Shown here piece by piece: positions 3,867-60,958 of a stretch of 64,000 nucleotides of DNA. The stretch lies in the NCBI RefSeq assembly GCF_001677475.2, contig NZ_CP012497.1. One strand, given 5' to 3'. The translations under genes and the position numbers were made by a program. The stretch comes from Escherichia coli (GTDB lineage: Bacteria; Pseudomonadota; Gammaproteobacteria; Enterobacterales; Enterobacteriaceae). How positions within the stretch are numbered: position 1 is the stretch's first letter; each line of letters opens with the position of its first letter. The notes below the pieces were generated by a model, which saw only the letters and a list, made by a program, of their open reading frames with translations, did not search any database and was not told the DNA's origin.

Positions 3867-6800
3867 ATGGAAAGAAAAAACGCCAACATTGACGATGTTA
3901 TAAGGACAGTTGAAACCGCCAGCGCAAAAGAGCTGGAAGAGCTTGCTGGTATCCGGGAAGCTGTTGAAGATTTGAAAGGTGGGCGAGTTGCTACTGTTGA
4001 TCCTGTCTCTCGCAGCGTGTCGGCATTAAATCGCACAATCGAAAATTCCCGGCCTGACTTTGTGGCCAAAGCGCCATCAGTAGACCCTATTGTTGACGCA
4101 ATGAAACGGCTTAATTTAGGGGACGTTTCTCGTGTAGTTCAGGAAGATGTTGCTCAACAGGAACAGCGGGCCAAATCAACCACACCAAAGGGTAAAAAAC
4201 GACGCAGGAAGGCTATACCAGAGGATGTAAAGGCGCAACGGACCGAAGCAGCCGAACACGCTCGCGAAATGTTCGGTCAAAAAGGCGGTGCGCAAAAAAG
4301 CCAAAACCAACGCGATGCGCGTGGTCGTTTTATTGGAAAGTCAGGGAGTAAGGCCGCAGCGGAAGATGCCCATGCTGAACGAGCAGAAAAGGCCAGGCGA
4401 AAAGAGGATGATGAGCGTCTAAATGCTGAATCAGGTTTATTAAAAAAACTGTCAAAAGTAGCTGAAGGCATAGGTAACCCTTCAGAGACTCGTGCCGTCG
4501 ATGCGTTAGGTTATGCCGTTGCTGGTCCATTGTGGGCCGCAGGGAAGGAGCTTGGCGGGATATCAAAAGAAGTTGGCGGATCGCTTAATGGTGCCAGAAA
4601 GTCTATTGCCGATGTGATTCGTGGCAATGACGATAACAGCCGTAAAAAAGGTTTTTTTAGGCGTAAATCGCAAAGTAGTGCCGATGTCGTTCAGGTTAAC
4701 ACCCAAAAACGGACGGTTCAGGAACTTCAGGATCAGACCAGCGAAATTAAAGAGGGCAATGACAAGATTCTCAGCGCCCTTGATCAGATAGCCAAAAACA
4801 CCGGGAAAAAGAAGGGCGGCTTGCTGTCCAAATTATTTAGCCTGTTAGGGAAGGGGGCCGGTGGTATTGCTTCCCTCATTTTTGGCCGTGGGGCACTAAA
4901 GAAAGTTGGCTCGATGGCACTAGGCGCTTTAGGTATAAAAAAAGTTGCAAGCTTATTGGGCTTTGGTGGGAAAAAAGCTGCTGCCAAAGAAGCTGGCGAA
5001 TTGGCTACTCGCGGTGCCGGAAAACTTGCAACTAAGGGATTGGGGAAACTAGGTGTTAAGGCACTTGCAAAGGGGGTTTTACGCGCAATTCCGCTAGTCG
5101 GCACGGTGGCTGGAGGTATCTATGATGCGGTAACCGGTTGGAATGATACAGAAGCACAACGTCGGACCTTTGGGCTTAAGGATGGGGAAGATCCATCTTT
5201 TCAGCAAAAAGCGGCTTATACACTGGCTAACGTTCTCGATATGGGAGGACTGGTATCTGGTATTAGCAGTGCCATTGGTGGCGTTCTCAAATCACTTGGA
5301 TTTGAGGATATCGGCAATATGTTGCAATCATTTTCGACGGAAAGTATTGCACAGGCCATTGATAGTGGGATTACCAATTTAGAAACATACATTTCTAACC
5401 TTGGTGACACCATATCCACAACATTCAACGATTACACAGCCAAGATTGGCGATGCTATTTCAGCTTGGTTCAGTGACACAACCAAGAGTCTGAACGAAAA
5501 ATTAGACGCCATCAAAGACTTCTTTACTGTCGATAACCTGAAAAAGGTTTTCAGTGATGCAATTGATAGTGCAATTGATTTCATTAAGAACCCGGGGAAA
5601 TACATTAAAGAGGCTGGCAGTAATCTATGGAGTGCCGCAAAAGAGCTTTCAGGTGAGGTTGCTGATGCCGCTGTTCAGAGCACCCCTGTGGCCTGGGTTG
5701 CATCAAAGCTAGTCAATAAAGCGGATGCGAAAGAGGTTACACCTGAATTAAAAACACCTGCTAAAGAACGTCAGGAGGGCAATGCTCCTAAGACTGAATA
5801 TACCCCTAAAAAGGCTAATATTGTCACTCGTGTTGTAAATGCATCCTTAGATACGGCGAAAGATAGCAATAAAACAGTTAAAGAAACTGCTAATCAGATT
5901 ATCAATGCAAATGCCGTAGAAACGGGCAATCGCGCGTTGCAGAAAATTGATAAAGCCATTGGTCAAAATAGCTCGTCATCATCGTCGCGTAATACTACTG
6001 GAACCAGGAATGATATTCAGAAAGCTGCGGATACCTACAACAATGGCAACTTGGATGTAAAAGTAGGAAGTCTTGGCGCTGAAGGTAAGGCAAATCTCGA
6101 TAAGTTGGCTCCATATTTTGCTGAACTAGAGAATAAATATGGTCTTCCAGAAGGCACTCTTTACGCGATTGCTGCAACTGAATCAGGAGGGGATCCTAAC
6201 GCAAAGTCTCCGCTTACAAGATCACCAGATGGAAAGTTAAGTGGTGGCGCACTCGGGATGTTCCAGTTCACGAGTATTGCTCGTAAAGAGACAGGGATAT
6301 CGGAACCGGATGCATTTGATCCTGTGAAATCGGCAGAAGCTGCGGCTCTTCTCATGAGCAAGTATCTGAAGCAAGCCAATGGAGACTTAAACGAGGCCAT
6401 CACTGCATATAACGCTGGGTTTGGCACTATCAATAAGTGGAAAAAAGGCACAGGTGACTTATCGAAAGAAAACCGTGAGTACGCGATCAAGGTCAATACT
6501 CATCGTGCTCGCTATTTGGGTGGTGAAATCTATACACCTGGAGCAGGAGCACAGGGTGGGGCGCAATATGGAGTGAGGGGACCACTGCCTGATAACGCTG
6601 TTATCGATCAGTCTACTGGCCTGGCGTTTACCCCTGGTGATAGCCCGTTTGAGAAAGGCGGTCTGGTAGACAAAATCGGCAATGCTGTTGGCGTTAACGA
6701 TCTGGTCAACAAATTCATGAATGGCCGGGGGATGCGTCGGGAAGTCGTTCAGGGAACCCTCGAAGAACGTGCACGAGGAAGGGGAACCGCAACGGCAGCT

Positions 6801-57428: not shown

Positions 57429-57649
57429 TATCGGTTTACCAGTTCCTTGTTGGTGGAGTCCAGGGTGTCAAACAGGGATGCAAATTCGGCATCCAGCGCC
57501 GCTTTTTTGTAGGCTTCGAAAGTAGCCTTGCTGACAATTACTGCTGGCTCACGGCCTCTGCGAGTGATTTCAACCTCTTCCCCGGCTTCAACATTGTTGA
57601 GCACTTCAGAAAGGTTGCCGCGCGCGGTACGGAAGTTAATGGATTGCAT
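57428..57649 (-). CDS. phd: Phd antitoxin
   Basis: 73 aa, [41 protein letters not shown]...; the ORF-track start is 2 codons upstream. Confidence 0.9.
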
Positions 57650-57721
57650 AAACACCTCGTGTACTCGTTATGTGTACACAATTATAAACTTCACAGGCAT
57701 AAAGCACCAGCACTTTGCAGC

Positions 57722-58111
57722 TTAAATCACCGGACAATCATCAAATTCCCCACTTCGGGCATCATTAATGACATGAGTGATCACACCAAAAACAGCATTA
57801 CTACCCGTGTAACCATCGTCATCTACTGGTAACGCCTCTTTCTTCCCGGTGCTTAAATCCTCAAGGTGCTGACGCGGATACTTTCGGTATCTCTTTATGC
57901 GATATTCACCCTCCATAGCGCAGACAAGCAGCGAACCATCAACTGGAGTAAGCGAAGAATCAACCACCAGCAAAGCACCCTGCAATATTCCCTCACGGTG
58001 ATGACTATCAGCTGCCCTCATGAAGTAGGTCGCTGAAGGATGTCTAATTATCTGCTGATCAAGAGAAATACGGCTCTCAGCATAATCCGCCGCAGGAGAA
58101 GGGAAGCCCAT
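57722..58111 (-). CDS. humD: HumD (UmuD'-like S24 peptidase domain)
   Basis: 129 aa, S24 LexA/UmuD-like C-terminal domain. Confidence 0.8.
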   Translation of the reverse strand: MGFPSPAADYAESRISLDQQIIRHPSATYFMRAADSHHREGILQGALLVVDSSLTPVDGSLLVCAMEGEYRIKRYRKYPRQHLEDLSTGKKEALPVDDDGYTGSNAVFGVITHVINDARSGEFDDCPVI

Positions 58112-58127
58112 AATACTCGCCTCTTAA

Positions 58128-58147
58128 TACTGTATATACATACGGTA
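58128..58147. promoter_or_regulatory. LexA (SOS) box upstream of humD
   Basis: TACTGTATATACATACGGTA vs consensus TACTG(TA)5CAGTA. Confidence 0.5.
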
Positions 58148-58442
58148 TATGTTGAAGCTATATATTTTTGAACTCTATCTCTTAAAAAAGATGTTAATAA
58201 GATGCTAACTATTGAAAGGCATAAATATATACAATTCCAACAAACGTTATTTTTAACAAATTTTTTCTCTCCGTTGACTTTTGCGAAAGCCTTGTCTGGC
58301 CTAAATTGCGCGGAAGCTACTTTTTCCTTCCTGAGTTATCCACAGAGTTATGCACTTGCATGTATAACCTATACACACTATCTTAATTCGCAAGACACTG
58401 ATGTTGCGGTATTGAAGGTTCATTGGGTTAAAAATAGACATT

Positions 58443-58473
58443 AAAAAGCCCAGTTGACTAGGCTGGGCTTTTT
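58443..58473. terminator. Rho-independent terminator-like hairpin (A-run / T-run flanked)
   Basis: AAAAAGCCCAG-TTGACTA-GGCTGGGCTTTTT. Confidence 0.5.
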
Positions 58474-58773
58474 AAGAGGAAACAGAGTTTGCGGCTCTGT
58501 TCCTGAGCCATAAGTATCTGGCGACTGAATTAAGATTAACCGAATGTACTGGATTCATCAAGAAACGTTGAGTGGTCATACCAGGTAATAATGACCATTT
58601 ACTAAACATCGTTGTTCTCAAAGAAGATTTAAGTCCAGGTTTTTGGTGACTCTAAAACCTTACCTTAACTCGAAATCGTGCCGTAAGTATCTGGCGACTA
58701 CAGATATTGCAACTGCAAAGGCAAGCCCAAAGGTATTTGCAGCTAGGCGCGATAAAACTAAGTGAGACCTGTT

Positions 58774-58857
58774 ATGGTTAACTTACTGTTCAAAATCGTG
58801 CCGCCGATGTTCGCGATTATCAAAGCGATCATTGAGTACGTAAACCAGCGTCCATAA
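58774..58857 (+). CDS. Candidate 27-aa hydrophobic peptide
   Basis: ATG...TAA encoding MVNLLFKIVPPMFAIIKAIIEYVNQRP, followed by a hairpin at 58871-58897; weak SD. Confidence 0.2.
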   Translation: MVNLLFKIVPPMFAIIKAIIEYVNQRP

Positions 58858-58912
58858 CGCTAGTTGCTACAGGCCCCATCAAGAGCATGGGGCCTCTTTA
58901 TCGTACTATTGC

Positions 58913-59578
58913 TTATTTTTTACGGACTGAGTTGTTCACTGCTCTGGCAATCTTCTCCCGCAATTGCTGCGTTCCGTGGTACTGAACCGCAATATCCCTC
59001 AACTCGTTCACCAGTTCTCGAATCTGGTGATCTTTAAGCTCATTATTTGGGTGATTGGTAACAACTCTGGTTAATTCACCCTTGTCTTTTGCTCTTACGT
59101 ATGCAGCTCTTGTGCATTCGACCCATGTATTACCGCCTACATTAACTTCGTAGATTAGGCTGGACTTATCTGTCAATTCGGAACAAATACGGGCCGTGGT
59201 CTGGCAACTAGAGCATTCGCAGTTATCGCGGAAACCGTGGTCTACTGGCTTCGGTTTCACATCATCAACTTTTTCTACCCTATTGGAATTTAAATACTTC
59301 GAAGCCTTGCTATGCCAATCGCTTGTTTTAGGATCTTGTCCATCCATCAAACGCCAGGCTTCAGCGATTAACTCATAACTAGTGACTGTAGCTTCCTGCG
59401 CATCACCAACAAGCCGTGTAATCTCTCTTTCAAGCCGACCGCCTAGCTCTGTTTTAGTGCAATGTTCTGACCAATCGCCAGCCTCAAGCAGCGCGAGAAT
59501 GCTTAAAATATCGTCCAATAGAACGGTAGTATTATCGACTTCCTTCTGAAACTCACCGGCTACTGATTTATGCATCAT
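58913..59578 (-). CDS. Hypothetical late protein
   Basis: 221-aa ORF in the minus-strand late operon. Confidence 0.4.
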   Translation of the reverse strand: MMHKSVAGEFQKEVDNTTVLLDDILSILALLEAGDWSEHCTKTELGGRLEREITRLVGDAQEATVTSYELIAEAWRLMDGQDPKTSDWHSKASKYLNSNRVEKVDDVKPKPVDHGFRDNCECSSCQTTARICSELTDKSSLIYEVNVGGNTWVECTRAAYVRAKDKGELTRVVTNHPNNELKDHQIRELVNELRDIAVQYHGTQQLREKIARAVNNSVRKK

Positions 59579-60049: not shown

Positions 60050-60778
60050 TTATTCCTGAATGCGCTTAAACTCGATTACCCACACCCAGGGATTAGCGTT
60101 CCAGCTTTCTTCGCCGTAGATGGACTCCCACAGACGCTGGAACGCAACCTTGGCCATTGCGAAGTCCCCATTGGGAGTAAGGAATGTTCCCGGGTAATCA
60201 GGAAGTAAACTTCCAGCAGGCGGAACGCCCTCAGCCCCTGCATCGCATTCGCTGATATCGTTCAACCGCTCAACGCGCACGTTGGTAATTTCCAACAGAA
60301 TGCGTGATGCCCATCGCGGCATGTGAATTGATGGACGCCACCCACCATCAAACTTTTCATTCACAGTGTGAGGTTTCCAGTCGGCATCATCGGGTATCGA
60401 CCATAAGCCGTAATCACCAGGCTTTTGCTCACAACTGGCCCGATAAATCCTTGCTGCGTTCTTCTCATCGCCACGACAAGGGTTGTCGTTCCAGTCCACA
60501 CTGCAACCATCCTCATTGCCTAATATCGCCCATGTTTCACGAACCCAAATTCGATCGCCGACGATACCAAAGGGGCAATTGAAAACACTGCTTACACCAT
60601 CAGCCCCGTACCACTGAAAACCTGCACCAATTTTTCTAACCATCACTGGTGCTTCTGGACCAACTTCCGCAGGCTGATTTTTCATTATCCGCCGCGTCTG
60701 CGTTTTCCTTCCTTCGAGGATGGCCCGGACCATCTCATCGTTGAAAATCATGCCGCGCTCTTTCACTTCGCCTTTCAT
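60050..60778 (-). CDS. Hypothetical protein
   Basis: 242-aa ORF with 4-bp overlap to the downstream gene. Confidence 0.4.
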   Translation of the reverse strand: MKGEVKERGMIFNDEMVRAILEGRKTQTRRIMKNQPAEVGPEAPVMVRKIGAGFQWYGADGVSSVFNCPFGIVGDRIWVRETWAILGNEDGCSVDWNDNPCRGDEKNAARIYRASCEQKPGDYGLWSIPDDADWKPHTVNEKFDGGWRPSIHMPRWASRILLEITNVRVERLNDISECDAGAEGVPPAGSLLPDYPGTFLTPNGDFAMAKVAFQRLWESIYGEESWNANPWVWVIEFKRIQE

Positions 60779-60787
60779 GCATCCCCC

Positions 60788-60874
60788 TTACCCATGCGCG
60801 ACGATGCCGCCAAAAGTGATAGAGAACAGCCAGAAATAGATCGCGGCCATAATGATTTTGAATGCCGTGTTCAT
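60788..60874 (-). CDS. Candidate 28-aa hydrophobic peptide
   Basis: MNTAFKIIMAAIYFWLFSITFGGIVAHG with SD AGGAG 8 nt upstream, 9 nt before the next gene start. Confidence 0.3.
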   Translation of the reverse strand: MNTAFKIIMAAIYFWLFSITFGGIVAHG

Positions 60875-60958
60875 ATTTTCAGCTCCTGTGATTGATTGGA
60901 TACATGCCGCGCCTTGCGGCATGTTTTTATTTTCACTTTCTCTGTTTTAAAAATCAAC

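Follow-up and report, generated by a model that had tools for sequence, protein, structure and literature searches.

The 64-kb stretch of Escherichia coli DNA analyzed here (the window) represents a P1-like phage-plasmid, in which the humD gene (57722-58111, minus strand), with phd/doc on its far side, adjoins an apparently empty gap. The repeat, hairpins, two terminators, and 27-codon open reading frame (ORF) that a preliminary description had listed in this gap are all there and were correctly placed; the right-hand neighbors, which it took for late genes, are instead Ea22/Eae-type accessory genes, and in one chromosomal copy, these sit in the early-left accessory region of a lambdoid prophage. 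Sequence comparison divides the gap into two things, an element at 58150-58360 that is common to P1 and P7 and an independent module at 58443-58900, described below, of which the left element is not a part. Type I toxin-antitoxin (TA) loci are almost never annotated: the region 58440-58900 has no annotation in phage, plasmid, or E. coli RefSeq collection records, and the module is blank in every annotated record examined, including those of 114 complete E. coli genomes and of the LF82 phage-plasmid. The available data support two divergent predicted transcription units in the module, one for a minus-strand small RNA (sRNA) and one for a plus-strand peptide mRNA, and the module probably represents a new family of type I TA-like sRNA/small-peptide cassettes carried by mobile elements. 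Related loci are labeled L001 to L055 and so on where they need to be told apart.

The two copies of the 20-nt repeat, GCCATAAGTATCTGGCGACT at 58507-58526 and GCCGTAAGTATCTGGCGACT at 58680-58699, are identical in 19 of 20 positions and have the form GCC(A/G)TAAGTATCTGGCGACT; with up to 3 mismatches allowed, they are the only two matches in the 64 kb (0.00 expected from shuffled sequences). In diverged relatives, the two copies change together: L014 has GUAAAACACUGG in each of them, L004 has GUUGUUAACCGG, and L010 has GGCUACA. When the reverse complement of copy 1 was joined to copy 2 and the pairs were counted over 10 distinct seed/target pairs, 95.8% of the cells were paired and 10 of the 24 pairs changed on both sides. 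None of 500 shuffles matched the observed duplex on any of five measures, and sliding the partner by 1 to 3 columns lowered the paired fraction to 29 to 35%. All one-sided differences between the copies (9/9) are of the G·U type, and this wobble holds only when copy 1 is read as minus-strand RNA and copy 2 as plus-strand RNA, with the reverse polarity producing A·C mismatches. The polarity of the G·U pairs therefore fixes the strand of origin for each RNA and disfavors a purely DNA-level repeat. Two further seed types were found in loci that were later retrieved by the peptide alone. A conserved, co-evolving intermolecular duplex of 20 to 24 bp, located 75 to 94 nt upstream of a small coding ORF, is thus well supported by these alignments. 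The idea that the seed classes are orthogonal by duplex energy was abandoned: orthogonality is clear for two classes only, and by this measure there is cross-pairing between the window and AAUG classes (see below).

The minus-strand unit encodes a predicted ∼84-nt antisense sRNA (58443-58526), a putative antitoxin, that consists of a single-stranded 20-nt 5′ seed (repeat copy 1, 58507-58526, RNA AGUCGCCAGAUACUUAUGGC, complementary to 58680-58699), an internal hairpin (58478-58503), and a Rho-independent terminator. Pairs of the internal hairpin co-vary (e.g., UA/AU/GU and AU/GC), as does the stem of the terminator (e.g., AU/GC in 9 versus 7 sequences), which is a symmetric hairpin (58443-58473) with the potential to act on both strands: its perfect 13-nt arms occupy 58441-58453 and 58463-58475, and it is also called as a minus-strand terminator. 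The sRNA would end at this hairpin, as would any rightward transcript coming from the humD side. The 89-nt stretch comprising the hairpin and the terminator has a folding energy of −34 kcal/mol (z = −5.6), and the consensus structure shows compensatory changes in 5 pairs, with both helices affected in the relatives.

Upstream of the seed lies a predicted promoter (58533-58561, minus strand) with the −35 hexamer TTGATG (58556-58561), a 17-nt spacer, and the −10 hexamer TAATCT (58533-58538); in most relatives it reads TTGAAG-17-TAAGCT, and the hexamers are invariant or nearly so in the alignment. Among 2625 minus-strand candidates scored with a position weight matrix, this promoter took first or second place in each of the 12 diverged modules, with the −10 hexamer always ending 6 nt from the seed; a stricter consensus promoter scanner, run over 57600-59200, did not report the site. 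In the window, the first base of the seed (58526) is the 7th nucleotide after the −10 hexamer. Since the distance from the −10 hexamer to the seed is constant at 6 nt, transcription should start at the first complementary base. The covariance model R1, built from the sRNA, finds exactly one strong copy in each related locus (81 to 97 bits) and also matches, with 66 to 85 bits, the loci retrieved through the peptide alone, which were not used in building it (L051 and L052, in an IncFII plasmid context, and L054 and L055). In these, the sRNA is at the expected place and has new co-varying seed pairs, which independently confirms that both genes are linked.

The DNA between the two divergent promoters is more variable. 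The stem-loop GGTCAT...ATGACC (58574-58598), which had been listed among the structured elements, exists in the window and its close relatives and is absent beyond them, so that its presence stands and its status as a conserved element does not. The corresponding spacer in many relatives contains, in place of this hairpin, three to five T(G/A)GAACGSTT repeats with a ∼10-bp periodicity (L018 at 4470-4530 on the minus strand and also L008, L011, L010, L014, and L005), which might bind a regulator or form a stretch of curved DNA.

The 27-codon ORF (58774-58857, plus strand) encodes MVNLLFKIVPPMFAIIKAIIEYVNQRP, a putative small membrane toxin. Its variable columns are distributed 7/3/16 over the three codon positions, and the ratio of nonsynonymous to synonymous differences (pN/pS) is 0.05 to 0.6 in 28 of 31 pairwise comparisons; that the ORF evolves as a protein under purifying selection is well supported by these substitution patterns. 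The relatives encode one or two paralogous peptides of 26 to 28 amino acids in which M, L, K, P, I, and R residues are invariant. The best 19-residue Kyte-Doolittle window scores 1.85 in the window peptide and 1.85 to 2.3 across all peptides; the peptide is amphipathic (hydrophobic moment of 0.44) and has a kink where Pro-Pro or His-Pro is conserved. Only 10 clusters were retrieved when 1.84 billion representative proteins were searched with a profile. The peptide matched no family at an E value of ≤10 in Pfam (searched with a 31-aa version starting at GTG), NCBIfam, or PADLOC, and its single match in PHROG (E = 0.16) was to an uncharacterized family; membership in Ldr, Fst, or other catalogued small-toxin families was not found in Pfam, NCBIfam, PHROG, or PADLOC. 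Small paralogous ORFs occur as tandem pairs on one predicted mRNA in L004 (1640-1880), L005 (1625-1860), L051 (1500-1680), and L054 (445-640), for example, MLLLFLKLAHPVAVIIMTLLGYWKDR followed by MVSLLLKILPPLVAIITTIIDYINKR, with a strong ribosome-binding site (AAGGAGG or GGAGG) for the second ORF. Only this second type occurs in the window.

The predicted plus-strand mRNA is ∼260 nt long (∼58635-58900). Its putative promoter (58598-58628, TTTACT-19-GAAGAT), assigned with low confidence, would place the 5′ end near 58634-58637; it is based on weak, roughly co-positioned sigma-70-like matches across the relatives, and the consensus promoter scan reported nothing at 58598-58628. At the other end, a predicted terminator (58871-58900) combines a 9-bp G+C-rich stem (hairpin 58871-58895) with a T-rich tail; a hairpin with a T run follows the ORF at the same place in all relatives, with differing sequences. 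The only consensus sigma-70-like site in 57600-59200 is on the minus strand within the small ORF (58816-58844, TTTACG-17-GATAAT). RNA starting there would be antisense to the 5′ part of the ORF and to the 5′ untranslated region (UTR); the site is kept in the relatives, where coding also constrains the sequence.

The consensus fold of the 5′ UTR has four helices, a 5′-proximal hairpin and helices P1, P2, and P3. The 5′-proximal hairpin AGGUUUU...AAAACCU (58637-58660), which was also detected as an extended inverted repeat and carries the invariant UUGGUGA (58643-58649) in its loop, is 94% paired in the RNAalifold consensus (helix 1), with 2 pairs changed on both sides. The remaining helices form a predicted three-way domain (58676-58752), in which P1, formed by UCGUGCC (58676-58682) and GGCGCGA (58746-58752), encloses P2 and P3; P1 is 98% paired, and its one-sided changes are exclusively of the G·U type. 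The sRNA target, that is, repeat copy 2 (58680-58699, 75 to 94 nt upstream of the AUG), which co-varies with the seed as a duplex, is presented by the P2 hairpin (58687-58707), whose stem is made of GUAUCUG and CAGAUAU and whose loop, GCGACUA, is the complement of the first bases of the sRNA. Covariation with the seed extends to the 3′ arm of P2, with CACUG/CAGUG, GUUAAC/GUUAAC, and GUGUCUG/CAGACAC found in other loci. The stem of the P3 hairpin, CUGCAAAGG...UUUGCAG (58713-58742), does not vary among 17 diverged copies; compensatory changes (CUGUAAA/UUUACAG) are found in L051, a distant IncFII copy, and G·U variants in L054. At a guess, P3 might be a standby or recognition element. The Shine-Dalgarno (SD)-like sequence AAGUGAG (58760-58766) is predicted to pair with codons 4 and 5 (CUUACU), and the predicted unpaired probability of the SD region is 0.13 to 0.40 in 7 of the 8 variants folded.

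Several further features of the 5′ UTR differ among the variants. In the AAUG-type variants (L043 and others, with the seed GAAUGUAUCUGG), an AUG lies inside the sRNA target and opens a 26-codon frame (MYLATTDT...) that ends with a UGA within the SD sequence of the toxin ORF; the window variant (GUAAGUAUCUGG) is without this AUG. A mok-like leader ORF running from UUGGUGA to a stop within the SD sequence was rejected, being open in 7 of 17 variants and having a codon-position pattern of 7/8/12, which carries no coding signature. The database proteins P0003, P0005, and P0006, in which a UTR frame is fused to the peptide, are gene-caller artifacts or lineage-specific forms. A 14-nt direct repeat, TC(G/A)AAATCGTGCCG, occurs at 58670-58683, on the 5′ flank of the target, and at 58790-58803, in codons 6 to 10 of the ORF, and both of its copies can pair with GGCGCGAU (58746-58753), which suggests predicted alternative UTR conformers in the window variant. 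As a conserved feature, the alternative helix between GGCGCGAU and the AUCGUGCC that recurs within the ORF was discarded: it appears in the minimum-energy fold of the window and is not conserved in other variants, whose sequences were read by eye.

Approximately 20 diverged copies of the module were identified in P1-like and SSU5-like phage-plasmids, lambdoid prophages, IncF plasmids, and Citrobacter, Klebsiella, and Kluyvera; 58443-58900 has no counterpart in P1 or P7. Cyrano (pLF82), an SSU5-like phage-plasmid (PMC9928086), carries the module at 99% identity within positions 88,492-89,322 of OV696614. Among 5426 complete E. coli genomes, 114 contain the module (105 copies on plasmids and 9 chromosomal), and 113 of these 114 hold at least 80% of the 481-bp module-spanning query. 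Copies with 50 to 65% identity were found on Citrobacter and Klebsiella plasmids, in Kluyvera georgiana, in about a dozen distinct viral contigs, and in a few metagenome contigs. One chromosomal E. coli copy sits in the early-left accessory region of a lambdoid prophage; elsewhere, the module follows tail-fiber genes or lies beside a dcm-like methylase gene. In the window (57722-59578), as in L001 and L050, humD, the module, and a downstream gene for a 221-aa protein (phrog_20174) travel together, and the hosts of this block include the P1-like phage-plasmid of the window, the SSU5-like Cyrano/pLF82, and a lambdoid prophage. The gene beyond humD varies, being phd/doc in the window and a MinD/ApbC-like gene in Cyrano. 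This stretch is a mosaic accessory block common to unrelated temperate phages.

The preliminary description had suggested a candidate sRNA or small-toxin locus reminiscent of type I systems, and that suggestion is borne out, as far as comparison of sequences goes, by the covariation of the duplex, the promoter-hairpin-terminator organization of the predicted sRNA, and a selected ORF in a structured mRNA. In the mechanism that we propose, pairing would start between the P2 loop GCGACUA and the 5′ end of the sRNA, and the duplex would spread to 20 to 24 bp, opening P2 together with some of P1. Following the example of zorO/orzO and tisB/istR-1, this duplex would either block the upstream ribosome-loading (standby) region needed to reach the sequestered SD sequence or be cut by RNase III, or both, so that the peptide would not be made while the sRNA is present. 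The peptide would insert into the inner membrane and would be harmful in excess, and the pair could stabilize phage-plasmids, prophages, and conjugative plasmids or act in the competition between such elements. A fuller version, in which the seed and target have co-diversified into at least 7 distinct specificity classes, P3 is a new translational-control or recognition element, and the module has a role in maintenance or in phage/plasmid competition, is tentative and, with all its parts taken together, a shade easier to doubt than to accept. If the module is what it appears to be, the few E. coli loci in which a divergent antisense RNA acts through a 5′ seed would be joined by a new family, and phage-plasmids and prophages would have one more candidate maintenance or competition function. 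Its natural series of co-varying seed/target pairs would be useful in studies of sRNA specificity and for orthogonal RNA regulators. A 460-bp phage-plasmid gap that looks empty holds a conserved, mobile, predicted two-gene cassette, and LF82, which carries the unannotated module on its phage-plasmid, is a Crohn's disease-associated strain.

Several observations count against this interpretation. The promoter and the 5′ end of the mRNA are weakly predicted, the sequestration of the SD sequence is an energy prediction only, and the controls for covariation leave room for shared ancestry or gene conversion between the repeat copies. The grand average of hydropathy (GRAVY) of the peptide is 0.86, versus 1.4 to 1.8 for ZorO and DinQ, and it has a central Pro-Pro. 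The family is rare, with 10 protein clusters and few metagenome matches. Finally, L053 (NCBI assembly GCA_051447855.1, 1185-1650), in which the sRNA and most of the UTR are replaced, keeps an intact small ORF without the sRNA, although the promoter and the UTR are gone there as well; judged by eye, from a pair of OrfA/OrfB-like ORFs, the replacement resembles an IS3-family element.

The most serious alternative, which we regard as unlikely but worth keeping in mind, accepts the sRNA-mRNA pair as real and takes the peptide for a useful accessory (moron) membrane protein, involved, e.g., in superinfection exclusion or in the modulation of a host membrane protein, with the sRNA tuning or silencing its expression. 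The moderate hydrophobicity of the amphipathic peptide and its Pro-Pro/His-Pro kink would suit such a protein, as would the moron positions of the module (tail-fiber genes, the dcm-like methylase, and the lambdoid early-left region) and the lack of a match to any defense or toxin family in the searches listed above. However, the architecture is that of known type I loci, with a cognate, divergent, and adjacent antisense RNA, a long structured UTR, and a predicted sequestered SD sequence, and the diversification of seed and target into several specificity classes is what would be expected if leaky expression were costly.

A far less probable explanation would have LexA repressing the toxin mRNA, so that DNA damage would induce it together with humD, as in tisB/istR-1 or dinQ/agrB. 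The module does adjoin humD, whose LexA box TACTGTATATACATACGGTA (58128-58147) matches the consensus in 18 of 20 positions; moreover, a divergent gene lies opposite the humD LexA box in P7, and its positional counterpart in a P1 isolate is annotated with a LexA-regulated function. The right half-site of the window box is CGG, whereas the canonical half-site is CAG, which is what the 91%-identical relative L006 has. Nevertheless, a search of 58050-58950 for LexA-like sites returned only the humD box and none within the module (nor anywhere in 58150-58950), and ∼500 bp with a bidirectional terminator separate that box from the start of the mRNA. The distant, diverged copies of the module are not adjacent to humD. 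The SOS connection drawn in the preliminary description is thus reduced to adjacency: because the sole LexA box is that of humD and distant copies lie away from humD, the link is one of neighborhood and not of regulation.

Marginally less credible still is the proposal that the 20-mers are DNA-level sites (operators, iterons, or recombination repeats), the hairpins plain terminators, and the ORF fortuitous. Co-varying direct repeats could be two sites for a single protein or could be homogenized by gene conversion, and the 10-bp-periodic GGAAC-like repeats between the promoters of some relatives are compatible with such sites. Differences between the copies are, however, wobble compatible in one polarity only, the 3′ arm of P2 is a third segment that co-varies, as part of an RNA hairpin, copy 1 is situated exactly at the +1 position of a conserved promoter, and the module, whose ORF is under purifying selection, encodes no DNA-binding protein. 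The possibility that the region is a decayed coding remnant of P1 hot/lxr is next to negligible: lxr/upf93.6 or hot does adjoin humD in P1-type genomes, but only 58110-58360 aligns to P1 and P7, matching the noncoding element upstream of hot, whereas 58443-58900 has no alignment to hot or lxr and is kept as a unit in unrelated replicons.

This result also bears on two remarks of the preliminary description, which had placed P1 hot/lxr at this position and had named alignment to a degraded remnant of these genes as grounds for rejecting the locus. The position is right insofar as these genes adjoin humD in P1-type genomes; the module, however, lies beyond the DnaA-box element and does not replace hot, and it is dissimilar to P1 hot/lxr while being intact in unrelated elements. 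The left element belongs to a stretch (58110-58360) that aligns to P1 and P7 with 83 to 88% identity, the conserved element being noted at 58174-58360. It includes a perfect DnaA box, TTATCCACA, at 58336 and a second one with one mismatch 12 bp further, both within the tandem repeat GAGTTATCCAC/GAGTTATGCAC. Canonical IncY P1 has the core of the element directly upstream of hot, which is transcribed toward humD; the window is without hot and lxr, and the element there abuts the LexA box of humD. It has no Rfam match; one possibility is that it makes the leftward hot/humD transcription unit, which it would precede, responsive to DnaA. The gap was originally said to have no protein-sized ORF: an 80-codon ORF (58202-58444, plus strand) is in fact present and is open in three lineages, but it was rejected as a gene for the lack of a coding signature (differences by codon position of 10/13/13 and pN/pS of 0.69). 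The space that P1-type genomes have between the DnaA-box element and their leftward genes is occupied, in the P1 isolate MH445380 (L007, 3472-3609), by a different, very hydrophobic unannotated ORF of 45 codons, MNAFFQFLSAFLDAPIISQILAIILIIVLILLLRSVKNGIMHWLT, which has no PHROG or PADLOC match and may be another small membrane peptide or toxin candidate. Farther to the right in the window, a sub-threshold match to the Rfam GcvB family (60847-60930, plus strand; 20.3 bits, E = 0.26) lies ∼70 nt beyond the start of the minus-strand ORF 60050-60778, on its right-hand side; it covers a U-rich run and a strong hairpin of the terminator type (ACATGCCGCGCCTTGCGGCATGTTTTT) and is probably just a terminator.

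In a full-text literature search, neither these sequences nor such a locus was found to be described, nor were experiments in which such a peptide was induced and its effect relieved by the RNA; a prior listing among the candidates of Fozo et al. (2010), whose supplements reportedly contain more than 2000 candidate toxin ORFs, is possible. The Rfam matches of the predicted sRNAs are all below threshold and are limited to antitoxin sRNAs and the antisense RNAI (AgrB, 26.4 bits; OrzO-P, 34.2 bits; RNAI, up to 32 bits), being driven by the terminator and the general architecture.

Of the well-known systems, Hok/Sok resembles the module in being found on plasmids and phages and in combining a small membrane peptide (a putative one here) with an antisense RNA that acts upstream of the toxin ORF. 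The likeness extends to those variants whose target AUG opens the 26-codon upstream frame ending in the SD sequence of the toxin. In contrast to Sok, the module sRNA does not overlap its mRNA, and the upstream frame is not conserved, as 10 of 17 variants have it interrupted or shifted; Hok was not matched in Pfam or NCBIfam, nor Sok in Rfam. With TisB-IstR-1, the module shares the pairing of the sRNA 5′ end far upstream of a structurally closed (here, predicted) ribosome-binding site, for which the standby-site and RNase III model is summarized in PMC3919570. However, tisB is LexA regulated and chromosomal, whereas the module is without a LexA box and resides on mobile elements, and IstR was not matched in Rfam, nor was TisB matched by the peptide in NCBIfam or Pfam. 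The DinQ-AgrA/AgrB system likewise has divergent sRNAs that repeat a segment of the toxin 5′ UTR and a single-helix toxin of 27 aa, and AgrB (RF02891) is the best Rfam near-match of the window sRNA (26.4 bits, E = 0.25, gathering threshold of 40), mostly through the terminator. The differences are the lack of a LexA box in the module and its single sRNA copy, versus two in the dinQ locus; blastn-short and nhmmer comparisons of the module with the dinQ locus found nothing, and hhalign gave the peptide a probability of 0.2% against DinQ.

The closest likeness in layout is that to zorO/orzO, a pair of divergent, adjacent, and nonoverlapping genes in which each gene has its own terminator, as in the module. 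The divergent sRNA of that system has an 18-nt complementarity at its 5′ end to a target 73 to 91 nt upstream of the AUG (PMC3919570). Counted side by side, the 5′-end complementarity is 18 to 19 nt in zorO/orzO and 20 nt in the module, the targets in the long 5′ UTRs are 73 to 91 and 75 to 94 nt from the AUG, the repeat copies are spaced by 164 and 173 nt, and the ORFs encode 29 aa (ZorO) and 26 to 28 aa (27 in the window). The sRNAs are weakly similar in both directions, with 34.2 bits for OrzO-P on L005 and 17.5 bits for R1 on OrzO. The OrzO-P family (RF02083) was not reached at its gathering threshold of 60 bits by L005 or by L003 (26.4 bits), and the window had no match at an E value of ≤1. 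An nhmmer profile of the module scored 1.4 bits on the zor locus, from the terminator only, and the hhalign probability of the peptide against ZorO/ZorP was 0.2%; with blastn-short, nhmmer, and hhalign negative, homology to either dinQ/agrAB or zorO/orzO was rejected. Whereas zor/orz is chromosomal and nearly universal (the OrzO-P consensus query matches 5230 of the 5426 complete E. coli genomes), the module is mobile and found in 114 of the same 5426. We know of no zor counterpart for the invariant P3 hairpin or for the two-ORF variants.

Of the features that define a type I TA locus in general terms, the module has a small (<60 aa) hydrophobic coding ORF, here of 26 to 28 aa, and a complementary, predicted antisense RNA at the same locus, here with a 20- to 24-nt duplex and 10 co-varying pairs; toxicity of the overproduced protein and prevention of its synthesis by the RNA would be the third. 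Divergent antisense RNAs have been defined as those encoded on the other strand, 5′ of the mRNA, without overlap and within 300 nt (PMC8594479); the predicted sRNA, with its +1 position at 58526 and a gap of ∼110 nt to the likely mRNA start at ∼58635, falls within this definition. By all these comparisons, the module appears to be built like zorO/orzO, dinQ/agrB, and tisB/istR while being unrelated to them in sequence.

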